Below are positions 1 to 13,256 of a stretch of 16,405 bases of DNA, in pieces; the first letter of the stretch is position 1, and every line of letters starts with the position of its first letter. The stretch lies in the IMG/VR virus record IMGVR_UViG_2563366929_000009; one strand, written 5' to 3'. The notes beneath the pieces are model-generated. The model was not told the DNA's origin, ran no database searches, and saw nothing but the letters and a program-made list of their open reading frames with translations. This DNA comes from a virus. Its lineage: Duplodnaviria; Heunggongvirae; Uroviricota; Caudoviricetes. A program made the translations under genes and the position numbers.

Positions 1-1131
1 TCAAATGACCAGTTTTTTCCATTCCTTACCGCGTGCGTCGTTGTAAATATCGGTCATTTTTTGATTCGAATGGCCCAGCAAAATTTTGGTATCAACCCCC
101 TGCTCTCTGAACAATCGCTCTGATAAAGATCTCTGCTCATGGAAAGAGGGTGGGGTGCCATTAGCACGCCAGTTGTAATCCACAGAATCCCGGGCTTTTT
201 TAAATGCAACGGTTAATGTTGCTGGCTTAACCATCCCGCCGCGCTTAGCTGTCCCTTTCGCGTGATGGTGGTGCAATAGCCACGGACTAAGAACGCAATC
301 GCGGCAGGATGACACCACATCATCTAGGGTGAGATTTAATTTATCGCAACGCAGAGCCAGAGGGATGGCAATCCGGGTTCCTGTTTTTTGCTGTTCGACA
401 TGAAGATAACCATCCCGGATATCCGAAAATTGCATTTTGCAAATATCTGAAAGGCGCTGGCCTGTCATCAGTGCCAGCAGCATACCGCGCTGTAAAAAGT
501 AACCATCCTTTTCCGCTGCGTTATAAATCATCATCCACTCATCAAAAGTCAGTCGCTGTCTTGATATCCGCACCTGCGGTTTTTTTGCCGATTCTGCAGG
601 GTTAAAGCCTGGCGGGACATCGCCCGTTTGCTGAGCTTCCCGGAAAACATCGATCAGTACTTTCCTGAAAATTTGTCCCATTCTGTTATGTCCTCTGGCC
701 TTGTACTCTTCCAGTACTGATACCACATCTTTTACGGTTATGGCATCTAACGGTCTGGTGCCAAAACGTTCATCAAATACCCTGAGAGGGGCCGCTTTCT
801 GTTTCAGCGTGTTGAGTTTGATCTCGCCGTTTTCATATCTTTCCTGTTGAATTTTTCTGTAATTATTCAGAAAAATGGTAACGGTTGATGAACCGCCGGT
901 GTCACTAATAATTTTCTCCTGCAGACTGAGCATTTGTTCCATTTGCTGCCGGGCAAGACGGCTGTTCGCTTCTGCTGCAATAGTTTCTGCCAGTTTCTGG
1001 TCAATACTGCCGAGACCGTGATTTTTGCCTGTTATGGGATGCCTGTAACGCCAGTAAACTTTGTTATTTCTTTTGTCAAAATATGGAGATAATCCCGGAA
1101 CATCGGTTTTATATTTTCGCGGGCGCGCCAT
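1..1131 (-). CDS. int: Phage tyrosine integrase (lambda Int-like)
   Basis: 376-aa minus-strand ORF. C-terminal segment (..ILLGHSNQKMTDIYNDARGKEW..) resembles the lambda Int catalytic C-terminus including the Tyr. Its start overlaps the end of the upstream excisionase by 23 nt, as in lambda xis-int. Stop codon is at window positions 1-3. Confidence 0.9.
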   Translation of the reverse strand: MARPRKYKTDVPGLSPYFDKRNNKVYWRYRHPITGKNHGLGSIDQKLAETIAAEANSRLARQQMEQMLSLQEKIISDTGGSSTVTIFLNNYRKIQQERYENGEIKLNTLKQKAAPLRVFDERFGTRPLDAITVKDVVSVLEEYKARGHNRMGQIFRKVLIDVFREAQQTGDVPPGFNPAESAKKPQVRISRQRLTFDEWMMIYNAAEKDGYFLQRGMLLALMTGQRLSDICKMQFSDIRDGYLHVEQQKTGTRIAIPLALRCDKLNLTLDDVVSSCRDCVLSPWLLHHHHAKGTAKRGGMVKPATLTVAFKKARDSVDYNWRANGTPPSFHEQRSLSERLFREQGVDTKILLGHSNQKMTDIYNDARGKEWKKLVI

Positions 1132-6582: not shown

Positions 6583-6793
6583 TTTTATATTGGCGAGGTG
6601 ACGGGAGTTAAGTAGAATTGCTGCGGGTGCTTGAGGCTATCTGCCTCAGGCATGAACACCAAAGGCAGATAGAGAAAAGCCCCAGTTAATATTACGCGTC
6701 CTGCAAGACGCTTAACATTAATCTGAGGCTCAATCTATGAACGGCAAATCTAGGTTAGCCTCTTACGTGCCGAAAGGCAAGGAGAAGCAGGCT

Positions 6794-6949
6794 ATGAAGC
6801 AGCAAAAGGCGATGTTAATCGCCCTGATCGTCATCTGTTTAACCGTCATAGTGACGGCACTGGTAACGAGGAAAGACCTCTGCGAGGTACGAATCCGAAC
6901 CGGCCAGACGGAGGTCGCTGTCTTCACAGTTTACGAACCTGAGGAGTAA
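6794..6949 (+). CDS. hokD: Hok/Gef-family type I toxin (HokD/RelF-like, 51 aa)
   Basis: MKQQKAMLIALIVICLTVIVTALVTRKDLCEVRIRTGQTEVAVFTVYEPEE is near-identical to my recollection of HokD. GGAGA Shine-Dalgarno 9 nt upstream. The in-frame upstream extension from 6737 (ORF-track 70-aa ORF) may be a mok-like leader ORF. Hairpin GGCGAGGG-agaaat-CCCTCGCC follows the stop, as at hok mRNA 3' ends. Confidence 0.85.
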   Translation: MKQQKAMLIALIVICLTVIVTALVTRKDLCEVRIRTGQTEVAVFTVYEPEE

Positions 6950-8830: not shown

Positions 8831-9648
8831 AACTGGAAGATTTACCGAAATACTACTCCCCAAAATCCCCTGGCCTGACCGATGCATCGGCCTCAACGTC
8901 AAAAGATGCGCTGAGTATCACTGATGTGATGGCCGCGCAGGGCATGACACAGAATCGGGCTGAGATGGGGTTTTCTGCGTTCCTGGGGAAAATGGGCATC
9001 AGTATGAATGACAGGGCGCGGGCAACAGAATTACTGGCAGATTATGCACTCAGTCGGTGCGATCGTGTGGCGGCGTTGAGAAAACTTCCGGCAGAAATAA
9101 AACCGGTAGTGATGCGCATTATGGCTTCGTATGCGTTTGAAGATTATGCCCGTAGCGCGGCGAGCAAAAAACAGTGCCCTTGCTGTCACGGAAAAAAATT
9201 TATTGAAAGCGAGGTTTTTACAAACAAGATCCAGTATCCGGATGGTAAGCCACCAGTGTGGGCAAAGTGCACAAAAGGCGTGTATCCGTCTTACTGGGAA
9301 GAATGGAAAAAAGTCAGGGAGGTGGTAAAAGTTGCCTGTCCGGAGTGTGGCGGAAAGGGTGAGGTTTCCACCGCCTGTAAGGATTGCCGTGGGCGTGGTG
9401 TCGCCATTCATCGTGAAGAGTCGGTAAAACGTGGTATGCCTGTTATCAGAGATTGCCAGCGTTGTGGTGGTCGTGGCTGTGAAAGGCTGCCATCAACGGA
9501 GGCATTTAATGCCATATGCAAAGTGACGAGTGCTATCACGCTTGATACGTGGAAAAAATCAGTGAAACGCTTTTACGATACGTTGGTGGTTCGGTTTGAC
9601 ATTGAAGAGGCATGGGCGGAGCGGCAGTTAAAGAGGGTAACGCGATAG
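8827..9648 (+). CDS. Q: Late-gene antitermination protein Q-like
   Basis: 273 aa. Start overlaps the rusA stop (ATGA). Lies directly upstream of a pR'-like promoter. Carries four CxxCxGxG-type Cys repeats (CPCCHGKK, CPECGGKG, CKDCRGRG, CQRCGGRG). Confidence 0.8.
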   Translation: MKLEDLPKYYSPKSPGLTDASASTSKDALSITDVMAAQGMTQNRAEMGFSAFLGKMGISMNDRARATELLADYALSRCDRVAALRKLPAEIKPVVMRIMASYAFEDYARSAASKKQCPCCHGKKFIESEVFTNKIQYPDGKPPVWAKCTKGVYPSYWEEWKKVREVVKVACPECGGKGEVSTACKDCRGRGVAIHREESVKRGMPVIRDCQRCGGRGCERLPSTEAFNAICKVTSAITLDTWKKSVKRFYDTLVVRFDIEEAWAERQLKRVTR

Positions 9649-9653
9649 TGTTG

Positions 9654-9693
9654 TTGATTTTTCCCGAATCTGTGGTAAATTTGCTCTAACGAT
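9654..9693 (+). promoter_or_regulatory. Late promoter pR' with promoter-proximal pause element (qut region)
   Basis: -35 TTGATT (9654..9659), 16-nt spacer, -10 TAAATT (9676..9681). Downstream TTTGCTCTAACGATGGG closely matches the lambda pR' initial transcribed region (TAAATTTGACTCAACGATGGG), including the AACGAT pause-inducing element. Confidence 0.7.
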
Positions 9694-9730
9694 GGGCGTT
9701 TTATGCCTGACGTTAGAAGATTTTTTACAC

Positions 9731-9752
9731 CCCGCCGCCTGGCGGGTTTTTT
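9731..9752 (+). terminator. Intrinsic terminator tR'-like
   Basis: Stem CCCGCC / GGCGGG with loop GCCT followed by a T6 run, about 45 nt downstream of the pR' start region. Confidence 0.75.
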
Positions 9753-9872
9753 ATGACTGAAATCGCGTCAGTACAGTAAACGCGCTGGTGGCGGTGAATA
9801 CCTGTCTTTCAGCTTGCTGGCTTTTTCGACAAGAGTTATTGGTGTGTCACGTTAACCGGAAAAGGAAAAGAC

Positions 9873-10070
9873 ATGCTAAAACAGCAGGATATGACAGAAA
9901 CCGCCAGAGTGGTGTTTAATGAATTAAGCGTTACCGACCCGGCGACAGTCGGGGAGATAGCGCAGAATACTTACCTTTCACGCGAACGCTGCCAGTTAAT
10001 ACTGACTCAGCTGGTTATGGCGGGTCTGGCAGACTATCAGTTCGGTTGTTACAGACGCCTTCCGCAGTGA
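9873..10070 (+). CDS. Small hypothetical protein (65 aa) with possible helix-turn-helix
   Basis: AAGGAA Shine-Dalgarno before ATG. Segment ATVGEIAQNTYLSRERCQLILTQLVMAGL looks HTH-like. First ORF after tR' in the late operon. Confidence 0.5.
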   Translation: MLKQQDMTETARVVFNELSVTDPATVGEIAQNTYLSRERCQLILTQLVMAGLADYQFGCYRRLPQ

Positions 10071-10097
10071 AGGCTTTTTTATTTGTGGTAAATGGGC

Positions 10098-10128
10098 GGC
10101 TGGTGGGTGTTAGGGGCACCCACCAGCC
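10098..10128. repeat. Perfect 12-bp inverted repeat (GGCTGGTGGGTG / CACCCACCAGCC) with 7-nt spacer
   Basis: Seen directly in the sequence between the small HTH-like ORF and the methyltransferase. Not followed by a T-run, so more likely an operator or RNA structure than a terminator. Confidence 0.5.
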
Positions 10129-10220
10129 ATCTGCTCATGCGTCCGGATCACAAGCAAACCTCAGGCCCACTGCTTTGCGCAAAAGCAGAATGAGCCTATC
10201 AGAGACAGGCTTAATGATCC

Positions 10221-11270
10221 ATGCTTAATACTGTAAAAATATCCAGTTGTGAGTTAATCAACGCCGACTGCCTGGAATTTATCCGGTCGTTACCCGAAAA
10301 TTCTGTTGACCTGATAGTCACGGACCCGCCGTACTTTAAAGTGAAGCCTGAGGGCTGGGATAACCAGTGGAAGGGCGACGATGATTACCTGAAGTGGCTG
10401 GACCAGTGTCTGGCGCAGTTCTGGCGGGTGCTGAAACCTGCCGGAAGTCTTTACCTGTTCTGTGGTCATCGCCTGGCATCTGATATCGAAATCATGATGC
10501 GTGAACGCTTCAGTGTGCTGAACCATATTATCTGGGCGAAGCCGTCCGGACGCTGGAACGGATGCAACAAGGAAAGGCTGCGGGCGTATTTCCCCGCCAC
10601 AGAGCGCATTCTGTTCGCGGAACATTATCAGGGGCCGTATCGTCCGAAAGATGCCGGGTATGCGGCGAAGGGCAGTGCACTGAAACAGCATGTGATGGCC
10701 CCGCTGATTTCTTACTTTCGTGATGCGCGCGCGGCCCTGGGGATAACGGCAAAACAGATTGCAGATGCCACAGGAAAGAAAAACATGGTGTCGCACTGGT
10801 TCAGTGCCAGTCAGTGGCAGCTACCGAATGAAAGCGATTATCTGAAATTACAGGCGCTGTTTGCCCGGGTGGCAGAAGAGAAGCATCGGCGTGGTGAACT
10901 GGAAAAGCTCCACCACCAGCTGGTGGATACGTATACCTCACTGAACCGGCAGTATGCGGAGCTGCTGAGTGAATATAAACATCTGCGGCGGTATTTTGGC
11001 GTGACGGTGCAGGTGCCGTATACCGATGTGTGGACGCATAAACCGGTGCAGTTCTATCCCGGGAAACATCCGTGCGAAAAACCGGCAGAAATGCTGCAGC
11101 AGATAATCAGCGCAAGTAGCCGTCCTGGTGATCTGGTTGCGGATTTTTTCATGGGGTCGGGTTCAACGGTAAAAGCGGCGATGGCACTGGGGCGTCGTGC
11201 GATTGGTGTTGAGCTGGAGACCGGACGTTTTGAGCAGACAGTCAGGGAAGTTCAGGATTTAATCGTTTGA
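10221..11270 (+). CDS. Orphan DNA amino-methyltransferase, beta-class (N6-adenine or N4-cytosine)
   Basis: 349 aa. Catalytic DPPY motif near the N-terminus (SVDLIVTDPPYF) and AdoMet-binding FxGxG (FFMGSGST) near the C-terminus. Motif IV before motif I indicates beta-class. No adjacent restriction-endonuclease gene. Confidence 0.88.
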   Translation: MLNTVKISSCELINADCLEFIRSLPENSVDLIVTDPPYFKVKPEGWDNQWKGDDDYLKWLDQCLAQFWRVLKPAGSLYLFCGHRLASDIEIMMRERFSVLNHIIWAKPSGRWNGCNKERLRAYFPATERILFAEHYQGPYRPKDAGYAAKGSALKQHVMAPLISYFRDARAALGITAKQIADATGKKNMVSHWFSASQWQLPNESDYLKLQALFARVAEEKHRRGELEKLHHQLVDTYTSLNRQYAELLSEYKHLRRYFGVTVQVPYTDVWTHKPVQFYPGKHPCEKPAEMLQQIISASSRPGDLVADFFMGSGSTVKAAMALGRRAIGVELETGRFEQTVREVQDLIV

Positions 11271-11319
11271 AACGGATGAGATTGCAGAATTAATTACGCA
11301 CCATTATTATTCTGCTCCC

Positions 11320-11395
11320 GGCCCTTTAGCTCAGTGGTGAGAGCGAGCGACTCATAATCGCCAGGTCGCTGGTTCAAATCCAGCAAGGGCCACCA
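11320..11395 (+). tRNA. ileZ: tRNA with CAT anticodon, most likely tRNA-Ile2 (lysidine-type, ileZ-like); tRNA-Met not excluded
   Basis: 76 nt with encoded CCA. Acceptor stem GGCCCTT/AAGGGCC, D-arm AGCTCAGTGGTGAGAGC, anticodon loop CTCATAA, T-arm GGTTCAAATCC. Resembles my recollection of E. coli ileX. Confidence 0.85.
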
Positions 11396-11402
11396 TCACA
11401 TA

Positions 11403-11479
11403 CCGCCATTAGCTCATCAGGAAAGAGCGCCAGCCTTCGAAGCTGGTTGCGCGGAGTTCGGGTCCCCGAAGGCGGTCCA
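11403..11479 (+). tRNA. tRNA-like sequence with UCG (Arg) anticodon; degenerate, possibly a pseudogene
   Basis: Cloverleaf can be drawn (anticodon loop CTTCGAA) but with A.A mismatch in the acceptor stem, a mismatch in the T-stem and an atypical T-loop TTCGGGT (G at the conserved A58 position). Confidence 0.45.
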
Positions 11480-11492
11480 TTATCTGTATCCT

Positions 11493-11569
11493 GCGTTGTT
11501 AGCTCAGCCGGACAGAGCAATTGCCTTCTAAGCAATCGGTCACTGGTTCGAATCCAGTACAACGCGCCA
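11493..11569 (+). tRNA. tRNA-Arg (anticodon UCU)
   Basis: 77 nt. Acceptor GCGTTGT/ACAACGC, discriminator G and CCA. Anticodon stem ATTGC/GCAAT with loop CTTCTAA. T-arm GGTTCGAATCC. Confidence 0.85.
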
Positions 11570-11584
11570 CACTTATTTTCCCTG

Positions 11585-11608
11585 GCTCGCTTTTGCGGGC
11601 TTTTTTTT
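11585..11608 (+). terminator. Intrinsic terminator after the tRNA cluster
   Basis: GCTCGC-tttt-GCGGGC hairpin (one G.U pair) followed by a T8 run. Confidence 0.6.
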
Positions 11609-11614
11609 AAATGT

Positions 11615-11828
11615 CTCACAATTCAGGCGGTTGACTGTTGTCTGGTTTGCGGGGAGTTTGTTAAAAGAAACTGGCATGGTGAATCCCCCTGTGCGGAGGG
11701 GCAATCAGCGAGTAGGTATATGGGATAATCGCGGATTCAGGTGCTGGTACTGAATTCACCGGGAGGCACCCGGCACCATGCAATGGCACATAGCGCCACT
11801 CTCCAGCCCCTCTCCGGAGGGGCTTTTC
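11615..11828 (+). repeat. Structured unit A: promoter-like element, hairpin, SD-ATG and terminator modules
   Basis: Shares conserved blocks with unit B: CTCACAATTCAG, GTTGAC, TTTGTTAAAA, GCATGGTGAATCCCCCTG.GCGGAGGGGC, GGTATA, TCACCGGGAGGCACCCGGCACCATG, AGCCCCTCTCCGGAGGGG+T-run. Blocks are separated by divergent spacers. Tiny ORFs at 11778..11903 (41 aa) and coupled 11903..12004 (33 aa). Confidence 0.6.
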
Positions 11829-12018
11829 TGTGCCGGATACATCACAGTTTCTGGAACCTTAGGTACTACAGTATCAGTCAGGGTGCTATATTTTCAGATG
11901 TGATGAAAGCCTGTCAGCAGGCAGGGCGTATCGGAAATGACCCAGTAGAGAAAACGTTGACTCAGATACCGGTGCTGAGTTACCGGGAAACCGGCATCAC
12001 ATGACCGCTATCCTTCCA

Positions 12019-12045
12019 GGCCCATCCGCTCCGGTGGGCCTTTTT
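12019..12045 (+). terminator. Intrinsic terminator
   Basis: GGCCCA ... TGGGCC stem with 10-nt loop followed by T5. Confidence 0.55.
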
Positions 12046-12082
12046 ACTGCAGAAAACAGGTTCCCCGTTAAATGCTATGTTG

Positions 12083-12316
12083 CTCACAATTCAGTAAGTT
12101 GACAGTTGCCTGTCAGACTGGGCATTTGTTAAAAAAATTTCGCATGGTGAATCCCCCTGAGCGGAGGGGCGACTGGTGACGGTATAATCTCTGATTATCA
12201 AAACGAGAATGACGCGGGTTTAGTGGCACCGGGCTGAACTCACCGGGAGGCACCCGGCACCATGTGCATGATGATACAGATACGCGGCTTTAGCCCCTCT
12301 CCGGAGGGGTTTTCTT
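12083..12316 (+). repeat. Structured unit B (paralogue of unit A)
   Basis: Same conserved module set as unit A. Includes consensus -35 TTGACA (12099..12104) and consensus -10 TATAAT (12183..12188). Terminator CCCCTC-tccg-GAGGGG + TTTT at 12294..12316. Confidence 0.6.
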
Positions 12317-12322
12317 GTGGGC

Positions 12323-12351
12323 AAAAAAAGCCCGCGCTGGGAGACGCGGGC
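12323..12351 (-). terminator. Minus-strand intrinsic terminator, back-to-back with the unit B terminator
   Basis: A7 run followed by GCCCGCG-ctgggaga-CGCGGGC. On the minus strand this reads as stem-loop plus U7. Confidence 0.5.
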
Positions 12352-12544
12352 GGCAAGGAATAAACAATAAAACGTGAAGTAATATTTCAGCTGGCGAATA
12401 ATACCCCATAGTAATCACTCTGCGCAACTGCGCGGTCTTTTTCGAATTGCGGGCTGTCGTCTCTCTTCTGCCATTGTCCTGTAACTTCCGGACTTCAGCC
12501 CGCTCCTTATTTTACTCACAATATTATCCCGGCCGGGAGGATTC

Positions 12545-12772
12545 ATGGCATTTAAACACTATGACGTGGTCAGGGCGGTATCGCCGTCAGACCTTGCGAA
12601 ACGACTGACACAAAAACTGAAGGAGGGCTGGCAGCCGTTTGGTAGTCCGGTGGCCATAACCCCTTATACCCTGATGCAGGCGATTGCAGCAGAAGGTGAT
12701 GTGGTGGTCAGTGGTGCAACTGAGCCGGATTGGTACTACGTCATCGTACTGGCCCGGCATTCCAGGCCATAA
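12545..12772 (+). CDS. Hypothetical small protein (75 aa)
   Basis: Good GGGAGG Shine-Dalgarno 4 nt before ATG. Upstream region repeats short blocks of units A and B (CTCACAAT, CCGGGAGG). No family recognised. Confidence 0.6.
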   Translation: MAFKHYDVVRAVSPSDLAKRLTQKLKEGWQPFGSPVAITPYTLMQAIAAEGDVVVSGATEPDWYYVIVLARHSRP

Positions 12773-12976
12773 AAGACAGTCTGGCAGTGGGACTAAATGC
12801 ACTGACGCTGATGGATATTACCAAAAATGTAACGTATGGCGTTGAGATAGAAAGTCTGGCGCTGGAGATAAATGCACCGGCATCATCATAAAAAGTGAGC
12901 CAGTCAAATGGAAGGTATCGTTAAACTCACCGGTAGTGTCAGTGGGTCGTCTGAGACGCTTGCATGAGTTATCAGA

Positions 12977-13005
12977 GCCATCAGTAGTTAACTGGTGGCT
13001 TTTTT
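12977..13005 (+). terminator. Intrinsic terminator immediately upstream of the holin gene
   Basis: 9-bp stem GCCATCAGT / ACTGGTGGC (one G.U), loop AGTTA, followed by T6. Confidence 0.7.
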
Positions 13006-13040
13006 ATTGTTTTCAGCTTCCGGATAACGGGAGACGGGGT

Positions 13041-13256
13041 ATGGACCAGATGGAAAAAATCACAACAGGTGTGTCATACACCACGTCAGCGGTGGGAACG
13101 GGCTACTGGTTCCTGCAGTTGCTGGACAGGGTTTCCCCGTCTCAGTGGGCGGCAATAGGCGTGCTGGGGAGTCTGCTGTTTGGGCTGCTGACATATCTGA
13201 CTAACCTGTATTTCAAAATCAGAGAGGACCGTCGTAAGGCGGCACGGGGAGAGTAA
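13041..13256 (+). CDS. S: Class II holin (phage 21 S21-type pinholin), dual-start motif
   Basis: [71 protein letters not shown] is very similar to my recollection of S21. Met1 and Met4 give an antiholin/holin dual start. GGGAGA Shine-Dalgarno. The ORF-track upstream extension from 12936 is not supported. Confidence 0.9.

Follow-up and report, generated by a model that had tools for sequence, protein, structure and literature searches.

STnc100 (Rfam RF02076, which includes EcOnc05 and EcOnc27/sRNA103) is among the sRNAs most frequently annotated in bacterial genomes, and reviews give its function as unknown. In EDL933, transcriptome reads were reported for all 11 STnc100 copies and STnc100_4 was verified by Northern blotting (PMC5331693); a statistical association with HUS outcome has been described for a variant that lies downstream of stx2 (PMC12711010). 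EcOnc05 emerged from the Sakai Hfq-CRAC study as an Hfq-crosslinked RNA with a CRAC peak and a Northern size of ~222 nt. The PasD1/PasD2 RNAs (= EcOnc13) of EPEC E2348/69 are Hfq-dependent, 172-173 nt long and form chimeras mostly through their 3' part (PMC8550237); a shared ancestry of PasD and STnc100 has been proposed by the PasD authors (bioRxiv 10.64898/2026.05.13.724894). Convergent pairs of sRNAs at the so-called moron site were described in 2014 (PMC4104026), and convergent Hfq-binding dyads occur downstream of pR' in at least eight Sakai prophages (PMC4104026; PMC7873438). The late region is also the source of lambda 6S RNA and StxS, short terminated pR'-tR' leader transcripts that are read through by Q-modified RNA polymerase.

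The window, a stretch of 16,405 nucleotides of a caudoviricete genome (IMG/VR record IMGVR_UViG_2563366929_000009), is a UTI89-type lambdoid prophage. The annotation of the UTI89 prophage gives the order Q, methylase, three tRNAs, sRNA cluster, DUF1737, holin and lysozyme, which places the cluster at the moron site between Q/pR' and the lysis genes; the layout is identical in Sakai Sp4, Sp5, Sp9, Sp11 and Sp17, and the adjoining tRNAs are ileZ-argN-argO. In our judgment the cluster very probably consists of three tandem + strand genes of the STnc100 superfamily, which we call A, M (diverged) and B, together with one convergent gene on the - strand (Table 1). A promoter and terminator scan of positions 9600-13100 found 16 terminator-like sites against 3.5 expected, including a series of terminators between Q and the holin gene.

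Units A and B are real but not new: both are copies of STnc100, a catalogued sRNA family of lambda-like prophages. The RF02076 covariance model, which has 206 positions and a curated gathering score of 47 bits, matched both over its full length (1-206), unit A at 11645-11835 with 136.3 bits (E = 1.8e-30) and unit B at 12113-12322 with 161 bits (E = 8.5e-37), a similarity far beyond chance. The preliminary description had reported two homologous units with a fixed order of short blocks, and had not recognised the element. The homology and the positions were borne out, every listed block was found in both units, and the pairwise alignment that it had proposed gave a mean column identity of 80%, with most of the divergence located in a central insert and in the sequence ahead of the terminator. 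Base for base, unit A equals the copy that E. coli O157 Sakai carries in prophage Sp4 (Sakai L125 862-1128), which on its coordinates is the published sRNA EcOnc05. Sakai coordinates in the 2014 paper and in NC_002695.2 are offset by ~0 at Sp4 and by ~+100-137 after Sp5, and EcOnc RNAs were placed by probe sequence and Rfam hits without relying on raw coordinates. The Sp5 copy, at 207.7 bits against STnc100, has a tail that the EcOnc27 Northern probe matches; the equation of EcOnc04 with the Sp11 copy is uncertain. By analogy with these homologues, discrete Hfq-associated expression of units A and B is predicted. No published experimental record was found for the tail type of unit B.

Table 1. 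Features of the sRNA cluster, in coordinates of the window
Feature	Position	Strand	Remarks
sRNA cluster	11.6-12.5 kb		Moron site; Q antiterminator/pR'/tRNA genes on one side, lysis cassette on the other
Block CTCACAATTCAG	11615-11626 (A), 12083-12094 (B)	+	CACAAT at 11617-11622 / 12085-12090
GTTGAC(T/A)	11630-11636 (A), 12098-12104 (B)	+	
Hairpin CCCCT-GNGCGG-AGGGG		+	Both units A and B
GGTATA(TG/AT)	~11715 (A), ~12180 (B)	+	
Block TCACCGGGAGGCACCCGGCACCATG	11756-11780 (A), 12240-12264 (B)	+	
CCCCTCTCCGGAGGGG + T-run	11805-11829 (A), 12292-12316 (B)	+	
Unit A, STnc100 sRNA gene	11629..11829	+	Putative long form ~201 nt; alternative 5' end G11674 would give 156 nt
Unit A scaffold	11674..11781	+	P1 (GCAUGGUG/CACCAUGC) encloses P2, P3, P4 and P5
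Unit A scaffold helices			P2 CCCCU/AGGGG; P4 GGAUUCAG/CUGAAUUC; P5 CCGGG/CCCGG; P3 also present
Unit A variable tail	11782..11804	+	Candidate seed AAUGGCACAUAGCGCCACUCUCC; one of at least 10 unrelated tail types
Unit A intrinsic terminator, AGCCCCUCUCCGGAGGGGCU + U-run	11805..11829	+	Hairpin 11805-11824; terminator scan and fold
Unit M promoter candidate, extended -10 TGcTATATT	11884..11892	+	Putative, read from the sequence
Unit M, STnc100-like sRNA gene	11898..12047	+	Scaffold 11898-12003, tail 12004-12017, terminator 12018-12041 + U-run
Unit B, STnc100 sRNA gene	12097..12316	+	Putative long form ~220 nt; alternative 5' end G12142 would give 175 nt
Unit B parts	Scaffold 12142-12265, tail 12266-12291, terminator 12292-12311 + U-run	+	Terminator scan
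Convergent sRNA gene, EcOnc08/21/42 and EPEC E2348C_1409.1408.IGR type	12323..12516	-	5' end putative
Convergent sRNA terminator	12351-12330 + U-run	-	Promoter/terminator scan
Convergent sRNA promoter-like site, ATGCCA-17-GATAAT	12551-12523	-	Promoter/terminator scan

Conservation of the scaffold is seen at the level of both structure and sequence. A long-range closing helix around P2, P4 and P5 was found in the folds of units A and M, and all 50 distinct scaffolds folded with P1 as the closing helix. The minimum free energy (MFE) fold of unit A reproduces the Rfam consensus; that of unit B differs from it, whereas the covariance model alignment of unit B fits. Pair counts showed 96.7% of cells to be paired, while slid controls gave 37-47%; both partners were changed in nine pairs, and none of 500 shuffles reached the observed values. 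When 56 P1 variants from many genera were compared, with independent anchors on both sides, pairs 3-8 were paired in 93-100% and displayed UA/CG and GC/AU exchanges; P1 therefore covaries across the Enterobacterales. At least 120 stretches contain the P5/P1 20-mer TCACCGGGAGGCACCCGGCA without a mismatch, and they range from Escherichia to Pantoea, Erwinia and Rahnella. Conservation is strongest at unpaired positions (GAAUCC, UCA and the loop AGGCA) and exceeds what a stabilizing 5' domain needs, which hints at an additional function of the scaffold.

Variation between copies is modular. Among 93 distinct units, promoter, insert and tail types are recombined and at least 10 unrelated tails occur; each tail type persists as a separate cassette with a conserved sequence, and the tail type of unit B (UGCAUGAUGAUACAGAUACGCGGCUUU) recurs with other scaffolds. 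The early proposal that small transcripts of one family keep their structural modules and vary in their cores is right in essence: the units are STnc100-family sRNA genes, and the variable part ahead of the terminator behaves as an exchangeable seed cassette would. Units A, M and B each carry an intrinsic terminator with a T-run shortly after the scaffold. Terminators lie 2-65 nt downstream of the scaffold, in some copies after a tail of only 2-5 nt; in a cross-genus set, 47 of 114 distinct downstream tails had a terminator within 94 nt, a count made with a crude and strict detector. In the region equivalent to the unit A tail, EcOnc27 has its Hfq-CRAC peak and PasD its RIL-seq chimeras (PMC8550237).

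We consider it very likely that the units are Hfq-dependent base-pairing sRNAs, each combining a scaffold that is conserved with a 3' seed that can be exchanged, and provided with its own promoter. Each STnc100 RNA comprises a scaffold of ~105-125 nt, a multihelix junction in which P2, a variable insert, P4 and P5 are closed by P1, a short unstructured tail that varies from copy to copy and a Rho-independent terminator; the tail, the terminator hairpin and the U-tract would form the Hfq-binding and seed module. The RNAs would be expressed in lysogens from their own nonconsensus promoters and act in trans by base pairing with host and prophage mRNAs, and the 5'-closed scaffold may serve mainly to stabilize the RNA or to bind a further factor. 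The STnc100 terminators, together with several others, would bar transcription from the lysis genes until Q-modified polymerase reads through. Copies have exchanged promoter, insert and tail modules with one another, probably through recombination at conserved blocks, which would explain the pattern of conserved modules and variable spacers that was first noted. In a more speculative version, which we hold to be rather unlikely, the ~105-nt multihelix scaffold, whose unpaired junction and loop nucleotides are, like the P5/P1 20-mer, invariant from Escherichia to Pantoea, Erwinia and Rahnella, is a dedicated platform for a protein or small ligand, STnc100 RNAs are scaffolds fitted with an exchangeable seed cassette, prophage recombination at conserved blocks re-programs their targets, and unit M represents an unannotated third subfamily of the system.

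The preliminary description left room for small-protein mRNAs. A reading of the units as such mRNAs, or as RNAs with a dual function, with translation starting at the ATG of the CACCATG block or in the overlapping 41- and 33-aa ORFs, is largely refuted, and we regard it as extremely improbable. ATG-initiated ORFs are present in both A and B, and ORFs of 41 aa (11778-11903), 33 aa (11903-12004) and 87 aa (11741-12004) do exist, but the tiny ORFs are not conserved and run through the terminators. What had been taken for a Shine-Dalgarno-ATG block is the 3' strand of P1, which pairs with GCAUGGUG ~100 nt upstream: the ATG lies within this helix in 50 of 50 scaffolds and is retained in only 3 of 56 P1 variants across the Enterobacterales. 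Translation from it would yield 48 different, unrelated peptides, the shortest of 2 aa and the longest of more than 50 aa; no conserved start, frame and peptide with a stop inside the transcript was found; the stop lies beyond the terminator in 45 of the 48, so that the terminated RNA would be a non-stop message. A Pfam scan of the 87-, 41-, 33- and 33-aa ORFs returned no match at E values up to 1. Ribosomal coverage in EDL933 exceeds 1 in STnc100_10 (3.21), STnc100_1 (2.16) and STnc100_5 (1.73) but is low, 0.04-0.65, in most copies (PMC5331693), and although a variant with 86% identity leaves the 33-aa ORF of unit M uninterrupted, the changes between the two M variants, counted by eye, are five nonsynonymous and two synonymous, with P2 kept by compensatory changes.

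Two further explanations assign the function to the scaffold. It could be a cis-acting sensor or leader, a riboswitch-like aptamer with its terminator, or could serve the phage late operon for insulation or processing, and much in its layout is aptamer-like: a closing P1, a multihelix junction, invariant junction and loop nucleotides, an ultraconserved P5/P1 segment shared by families of the Enterobacterales and a nearby terminator, in an interval with serial terminators. In units A and B, the 3' arm of P2 (GGAGGGGC) equals the 3' arm of the terminator and would permit alternative pairings, which the MFE fold of unit B uses. Terminator sequences vary between copies while P2 is constant, however, so there is no conserved antiterminator, and no gene consistently lies downstream: behind unit A comes a further sRNA gene, behind unit B one in convergent orientation. 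Tandem arrays of four or five copies in Pantoea also speak against a cis-acting role, as do the discrete, abundant RNAs with 3'-end Hfq crosslinks in lysogens, and we judge such a role improbable. Equally improbable, in our estimation, is that the scaffold does most of the work, by binding a protein or serving as a decoy (a host RNA-binding protein or a phage factor, for example), with the variable tail as a mere terminator spacer. The conserved unpaired positions, which a simple stabilizing domain would not need, the very short tails of some copies and a few PasD RIL-seq chimeras at the extreme 5' end are in keeping with it; the Hfq-CRAC peak and most RIL-seq chimeras fall instead in the tail and terminator, a motif common to the PasD targets is complementary to the PasD tail, and the tails persist as separate conserved types.

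The transcription start sites are putative. Of 66 distinct upstream regions, 46 retain the CTCACAATTCAG block at -59..-48; different contexts become homologous only from ~10 nt upstream of it. We infer that the CACAAT within this block is a candidate -10 element of a distal promoter, with starts at ~11629 (A) and ~12097 (B). Published Northern sizes of copies that carry the block are ~45-50 nt longer than those of copies without it, which conflicts with a PasD-type start at the G of GCAUGG, and the 5' ends of A and B must be regarded as ambiguous. A sigma-70 consensus scan of 9600-13100 flagged no site on the + strand, and the promoter assignments therefore rest on homology to PasD and on published Northern sizes. 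The promoter first proposed, a GTTGAC -35 with GGTATAAT as its -10, can be discarded: the two are separated by ~80 bp, and the -10-like sequence lies inside the RNA, in the variable insert of the scaffold, and is not conserved in the family. Nor is GTTGAC(T/A) a conserved -35, as it is replaced in other copies while TTG(T/C)CT, 7 bp downstream, is kept; judging from the Northern sizes, it may itself be transcribed. Transcript lengths would be ~156-220 nt rather than the 100-135 nt first suggested. By eye, the upstream block fits neither CRP nor sigma-54 sites. When the long forms of both units are folded, the MFE structure of each has the 5' leader paired with the tail; co-evolution of leader and tail is not claimed, as the cognate duplexes gave -12.3 kcal/mol against -11.8 +/- 0.28 for shuffled ones and 20 of 500 shuffles were at least as good.

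Unit M was missed in the initial reading. Its match at 11874-12047 scores 30.1 bits against STnc100 (E = 2e-4), below the gathering score, and its MFE fold has the same P1/P2/P4/P5 layout in a different sequence. The variant with 86% identity has a compensatory P2 and retains the promoter candidate. Unit M was found in 673 of 5,426 complete E. coli genomes and, among the matches listed, 29 of 30 loci carry no annotated feature.

Measured against the described systems, the cluster contains no element of a new kind. Units A and B share their four-helix scaffold, their terminator and their position in the moron site with STnc100, from which unit A does not differ in any essential; three copies lie in tandem here instead of one, and tandem arrays occur elsewhere too. 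PasD1/PasD2 have the same scaffold architecture (GCAUGGUGAAUCC..., P4 and closing helix) and location upstream of the lysis region, but PasD2 scores only 41 bits against STnc100, its promoter is canonical and proximal (TTGACT-18-TAAAAA), and its U-rich tail, 47 nt long, carries the seed UGUGAG, whereas units A and B carry other tails and the upstream CTCACAATTCAG block. Neither unit has the UGUGAG-seed tail, the GGCUGCGCAUNGCGCAGCC terminator or the canonical proximal promoter of PasD; their tails and terminators are unrelated to those of PasD, and the upstream class differs too. Unlike lambda 6S RNA and StxS, which start at pR' directly downstream of Q and have a counterpart here at ~9688-9752, the STnc100 units lie 2 kb further downstream, past the methylase gene and three tRNAs, and have conserved upstream blocks of their own. 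The value of the result lies mainly in correct annotation: in UTI89-type ExPEC prophages, RefSeq leaves almost empty an intergenic kilobase with four sRNA genes, whose families were first observed in EHEC and EPEC.

The fourth gene, on the - strand, had also escaped the initial reading. It is homologous over the mapped RNA to EcOnc08/21/42 and E2348C_1409.1408.IGR, shares 94% identity with the E2348/69 locus across 228 nt, and was also aligned with the Sakai Sp4 locus; RNAs from homologous loci have been published (EPEC RIL-seq table S6; Sakai Hfq-CRAC Table S2, EcOnc08/21 locus), and the published seed context CCUUGC and terminator are both present. An STnc100-type sRNA on the late-operon strand that converges on a second Hfq-binding sRNA in the interval from pR' to the lysis genes recalls the AsxR/AgvB dyads (Tree et al. 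2014), but the partner here is of the longer EcOnc08/21/42 type, ~180-270 nt. AsxR and AgvB are RNAs of 51-60 nt with a conserved 42-nt 3' region, recognized by a match to RF02703 or RF02702; neither model matched in 11500-12600 at E values up to 5, whereas the partners in Sakai Sp5 and Sp17 score 88 and 96 bits against the AsxR/AgvB models.

Units A and B, the two repeated units of this lambdoid prophage, matched the STnc100 sRNA family (Rfam RF02076) over the full model in a whole-window Rfam scan, with scores of 136.3 bits (E 1.8e-30) and 161 bits (E 8.5e-37), respectively, against a gathering score of 47; the element that they form is already known, and the feature itself is real. No base differs between unit A and the Sakai prophage Sp4 copy over the stretch running from the tRNA-Arg gene through the terminator stem, and the coordinates of that copy coincide with EcOnc05, one of the published Sakai Hfq-CRAC sRNAs, which has an Hfq-CRAC peak and measures ~222 nt on Northern blots. 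The Sp5 copy scored 207.7 bits against STnc100, and the published EcOnc27 Northern probe is the reverse complement of its tail, the variable stretch before the terminator. EDL933 carries 11 STnc100 copies, with transcriptome reads on all of them, and STnc100_4 was verified by Northern blotting (PMC5331693); a copy ~75 nt downstream of stx2B is present in outer-membrane vesicles (PMC12370729), and the family, without assigned function, is among the commonest annotated sRNAs of bacterial genomes (PMC9029176). It has been tied by structure to the EPEC E2348/69 sRNAs PasD1 and PasD2 (2026 preprint, bioRxiv 10.64898/2026.05.13.724894), and Tree et al. (2014) reported that eight or more Sakai prophages carry convergent pairs of Hfq-binding sRNAs in precisely this place (PMC4104026; PMC7873438).

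The preliminary description missed RNA genes in the same region. Unit M, between units A and B, scored 30 bits against STnc100, under the gathering score; in its MFE fold, P1 is formed by AUGUGAUG/CAUCACAU, and it has its own terminator and an extended -10 (TGcTATATT). It was found, in two variants, in 673 of 5,426 complete E. coli genomes, and among the matches listed, 29/30 had no annotated feature under the match. The convergent minus-strand gene, with a promoter-like site and a strong terminator, can also be aligned with the Sakai EcOnc08/21 locus; its EPEC counterpart, E2348C_1409.1408.IGR, is an sRNA known from RIL-seq. Identification of this RNA as an AsxR or AgvB homologue was rejected, there being no Rfam match. 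Its 5' end comes close to the 5' UTR of the opposite-strand DUF1737 gene or overlaps with it, and a plus-strand hairpin within its region may serve as an additional terminator of the late operon or else form inside the minus-strand RNA. In E2348/69 prophage PP6, the EPEC convergent sRNA has upstream of it an STnc100 copy that ISEc13 interrupts right after the P2 5' arm.

Positions of RNA genes and neighboring elements, with published EcOnc sizes (window positions; L numbers denote homologous genome stretches in their own coordinates)
Feature	Position	Strand	Remarks
hok/sok type I toxin-antitoxin locus	6625-6799	+	Rfam sok, 113 bits; hokD annotated in UTI89
Lambda-like late promoter with its terminator	9654-9752	+	Just downstream of Q; TTGATT-16-TAAATT, then AACGAT
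Strong terminator after late promoter	9731-9746		Plus strand; followed by T6
tRNA	11320-11395		Met(CAT) by ARAGORN versus tRNA-Ile (ileZ type) in RefSeq
Unit A	11629-11829 (candidate long form)	+	STnc100 match, 11645-11835
Unit M	11898-12047	+	Third, diverged STnc100-like copy; same four-helix architecture, other sequence
Unit B	12097-12316 (candidate long form)	+	STnc100 match, 12113-12322
Convergent sRNA gene	~12516-12323	-	94% identity with EPEC E2348C_1409.1408.IGR locus
Promoter-like site of convergent gene	12551-12523	-	
Hairpin and T-run	12420-12435	+	CTGCGCAACTGCGCGG TCTTTTT; kept in Sakai Sp4 and Sp5
HUS-associated polymorphisms, Sakai Sp5	L124 1437-1451		+90 T/C, +103 delT
Interrupted STnc100 copy, PP6	L003 ~1-150		ISEc13
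Pantoea STnc100 arrays	L163 894-2010; L202 4087-5956; L197 2035-3651		One on a 400-kb plasmid
EcOnc06			PasD-like upstream; GCAUGG to U-tract, 160 nt; Northern, ~177 nt
EcOnc13/PasD			PasD-like upstream; GCAUGG to U-tract, 173 nt; Northern, ~187 nt
EcOnc04 (assignment to Sp11 copy uncertain)			PasD-like upstream; GCAUGG to U-tract, 195 nt; Northern, ~222 nt
EcOnc05			Block-carrying; GCAUGG to U-tract, 156 nt; Northern, ~222 nt
EcOnc27			Block-carrying; GCAUGG to U-tract, 171 nt; Northern, ~235 and 247 nt

MFE folds computed independently agreed with the Rfam consensus: in helix P1, GCAUGGUG pairs with CACCAUGC ~100 nt downstream, and between these strands lie P2 (CCCCU/AGGGG), the variable insert, P4 (GGAUUCAG/CUGAAUUC), and P5 (CCGGG/CCCGG). 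Downstream of this scaffold come a short tail and then an intrinsic terminator. From viral contigs, 93 distinct units were picked by their 5' block pattern, and unconstrained MFE predictions gave P1 as the closing helix in 50/50 distinct scaffolds. Standard pairs filled 96.7% of cells in a 24-sequence alignment, versus 37 to 47% when partners were slid by 1 to 3 columns, and nine pairs were changed on both sides; the observed values were reached in 0/500 shuffles. Since this sampling had fixed the 5' block, a second sample was anchored on the P5/P1 20-mer and comprised 118 units from 120 genome stretches (Kosakonia, Citrobacter, Enterobacter, Klebsiella, Salmonella, Pantoea, Erwinia, Rahnella, and others), with STnc100 membership of the distant genera confirmed by Rfam. 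When each side was anchored independently, pairing at P1 positions 3 to 8 was 93 to 100%, and exchanges were frequent (pair 4, UA 29 and CG 22; pair 3, GC 37, AU 9, and GU 5). The 20-mer TCACCGGGAGGCACCCGGCA is exact in many Enterobacterales genera, and unpaired scaffold positions are so extremely conserved throughout this order that the scaffold may have a role beyond stabilization. Pantoea has arrays in which four to five STnc100 copies stand in tandem next to tRNAs, some with a tRNA gene interspersed.

The preliminary description, which proposed small transcripts with variable cores, either sRNAs or small-protein mRNAs, got its concept partly right and most of its details wrong. All of its blocks lie where it placed them in both units, and pairwise alignment (80% column identity) confined divergence mainly to the central insert and the 23 to 26 nt before the terminator. 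The supposed Shine-Dalgarno-ATG block consists of P5 and the P1 3' strand, and its ATG occurs in only 3/56 P1 variants; frames opened from it yield 48 unrelated peptides of 2 to >50 amino acids, 45 of which have their stop beyond the terminator, and none of the ORFs has a Pfam match. A 33-amino-acid ORF assigned to unit A proved to be the unit M scaffold read as protein; between the two natural variants of unit M, this frame shows 5 nonsynonymous and 2 synonymous changes (counted by eye), and the pairing of helix P2 survives through compensatory substitutions (GCCUG/CAGGC versus UCUGCC/GGCGGA). The coding of small proteins is essentially excluded.

In the best-supported interpretation, the cluster encodes sRNAs that depend on Hfq, act in trans, and are expressed from the prophage in lysogens. 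Conserved modules with divergent spacers, as originally noted, match a reassortment of promoter class, insert type, and tail type, which occur in varied combinations among the collected units (for example, unit-B scaffold with unit-A tail and unit-A leader with unit-B tail), and at least 10 unrelated tail types of 23 to 47 nt were found; this modularity is consistent with a conserved scaffold bearing an exchangeable seed. The EcOnc27 Hfq-CRAC peak is located on P5, tail, and terminator, the RIL-seq chimeras of PasD lie mostly in its last ~50 nt, and the PasD tail is complementary to a motif common to its targets. A structured element ending in a terminator could also act in cis, in the manner of a riboswitch, but this is unlikely: the downstream gene is not consistent, and no antiterminator is conserved across terminator types.

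Promoters and 5' ends of units A and B are inferred. The "GGTATAAT" formerly read as a -10 lies within the variable insert, ~80 bp away from the -35 paired with it, and most copies lack it; the TTGAC(T/A) taken as that -35 is replaced in other copies and lies 7 bp upstream of TTGTCT/TTGCCT. The mapped 5' end of PasD2 is the G of GCAUGG, with promoter TTGACT-18-TAAAAA, and units A and B retain the TGTTAAAA element with TTGTCT/TTGCCT at an equal 18-nt spacing. Published Northern sizes suggest that RNAs of copies with the upstream CTCACAATTCAG block are longer, and the excess of ~45 to 50 nt points to a start just downstream of CACAAT within the conserved block, near 11629 and 12097. Homology between differing genomic contexts starts only ~10 nt upstream of this block; given this onset and the size excess, we propose two candidate 5' ends per unit, this distal start and the G of GCAUGG. 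Neither candidate promoter was flagged by a sigma-70 consensus scan. The two polymorphisms after stx2B with a reported HUS association (PMC12711010) map, approximately (within 1 to 2 nt), to the TGTTAAAA element and short spacer just upstream of GCAUGG in the Sp5 STnc100 copy.

The 976 bases around the units are 100% identical in UTI89, S88, IHE3034, and many further ExPEC chromosomes; parts of this region occur in 2,869 of 5,426 complete E. coli genomes, 353 of which have 80% or more of it. In the UTI89 lambdoid prophage, RusA, antitermination protein Q, a small ORF, a DNA methyltransferase, and tRNA-Ile/Arg/Arg precede the sRNA region, a nearly annotation-free stretch of ~1 kb followed by a DUF1737 pseudogene, holin, lysozyme, and Rz; this ~1-kb region is a "moron" site downstream of the late promoter. 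The ileZ-argN-argO cluster and the STnc100 copy after it are the same in Sakai Sp4. Within 9600-13100, 16 terminator-like sites were found versus 3.5 expected from shuffles, at least seven of them on the plus strand between Q and the holin gene, an excess implying that lysis-gene expression depends strongly on Q antitermination; the sRNA terminators would join this series, passable by Q-modified polymerase only. The AACGAT after the late promoter resembles the lambda pR' pause element, and the terminator that follows would end a pR'-tR' leader RNA at ~65 nt, a counterpart of lambda 6S RNA or StxS.
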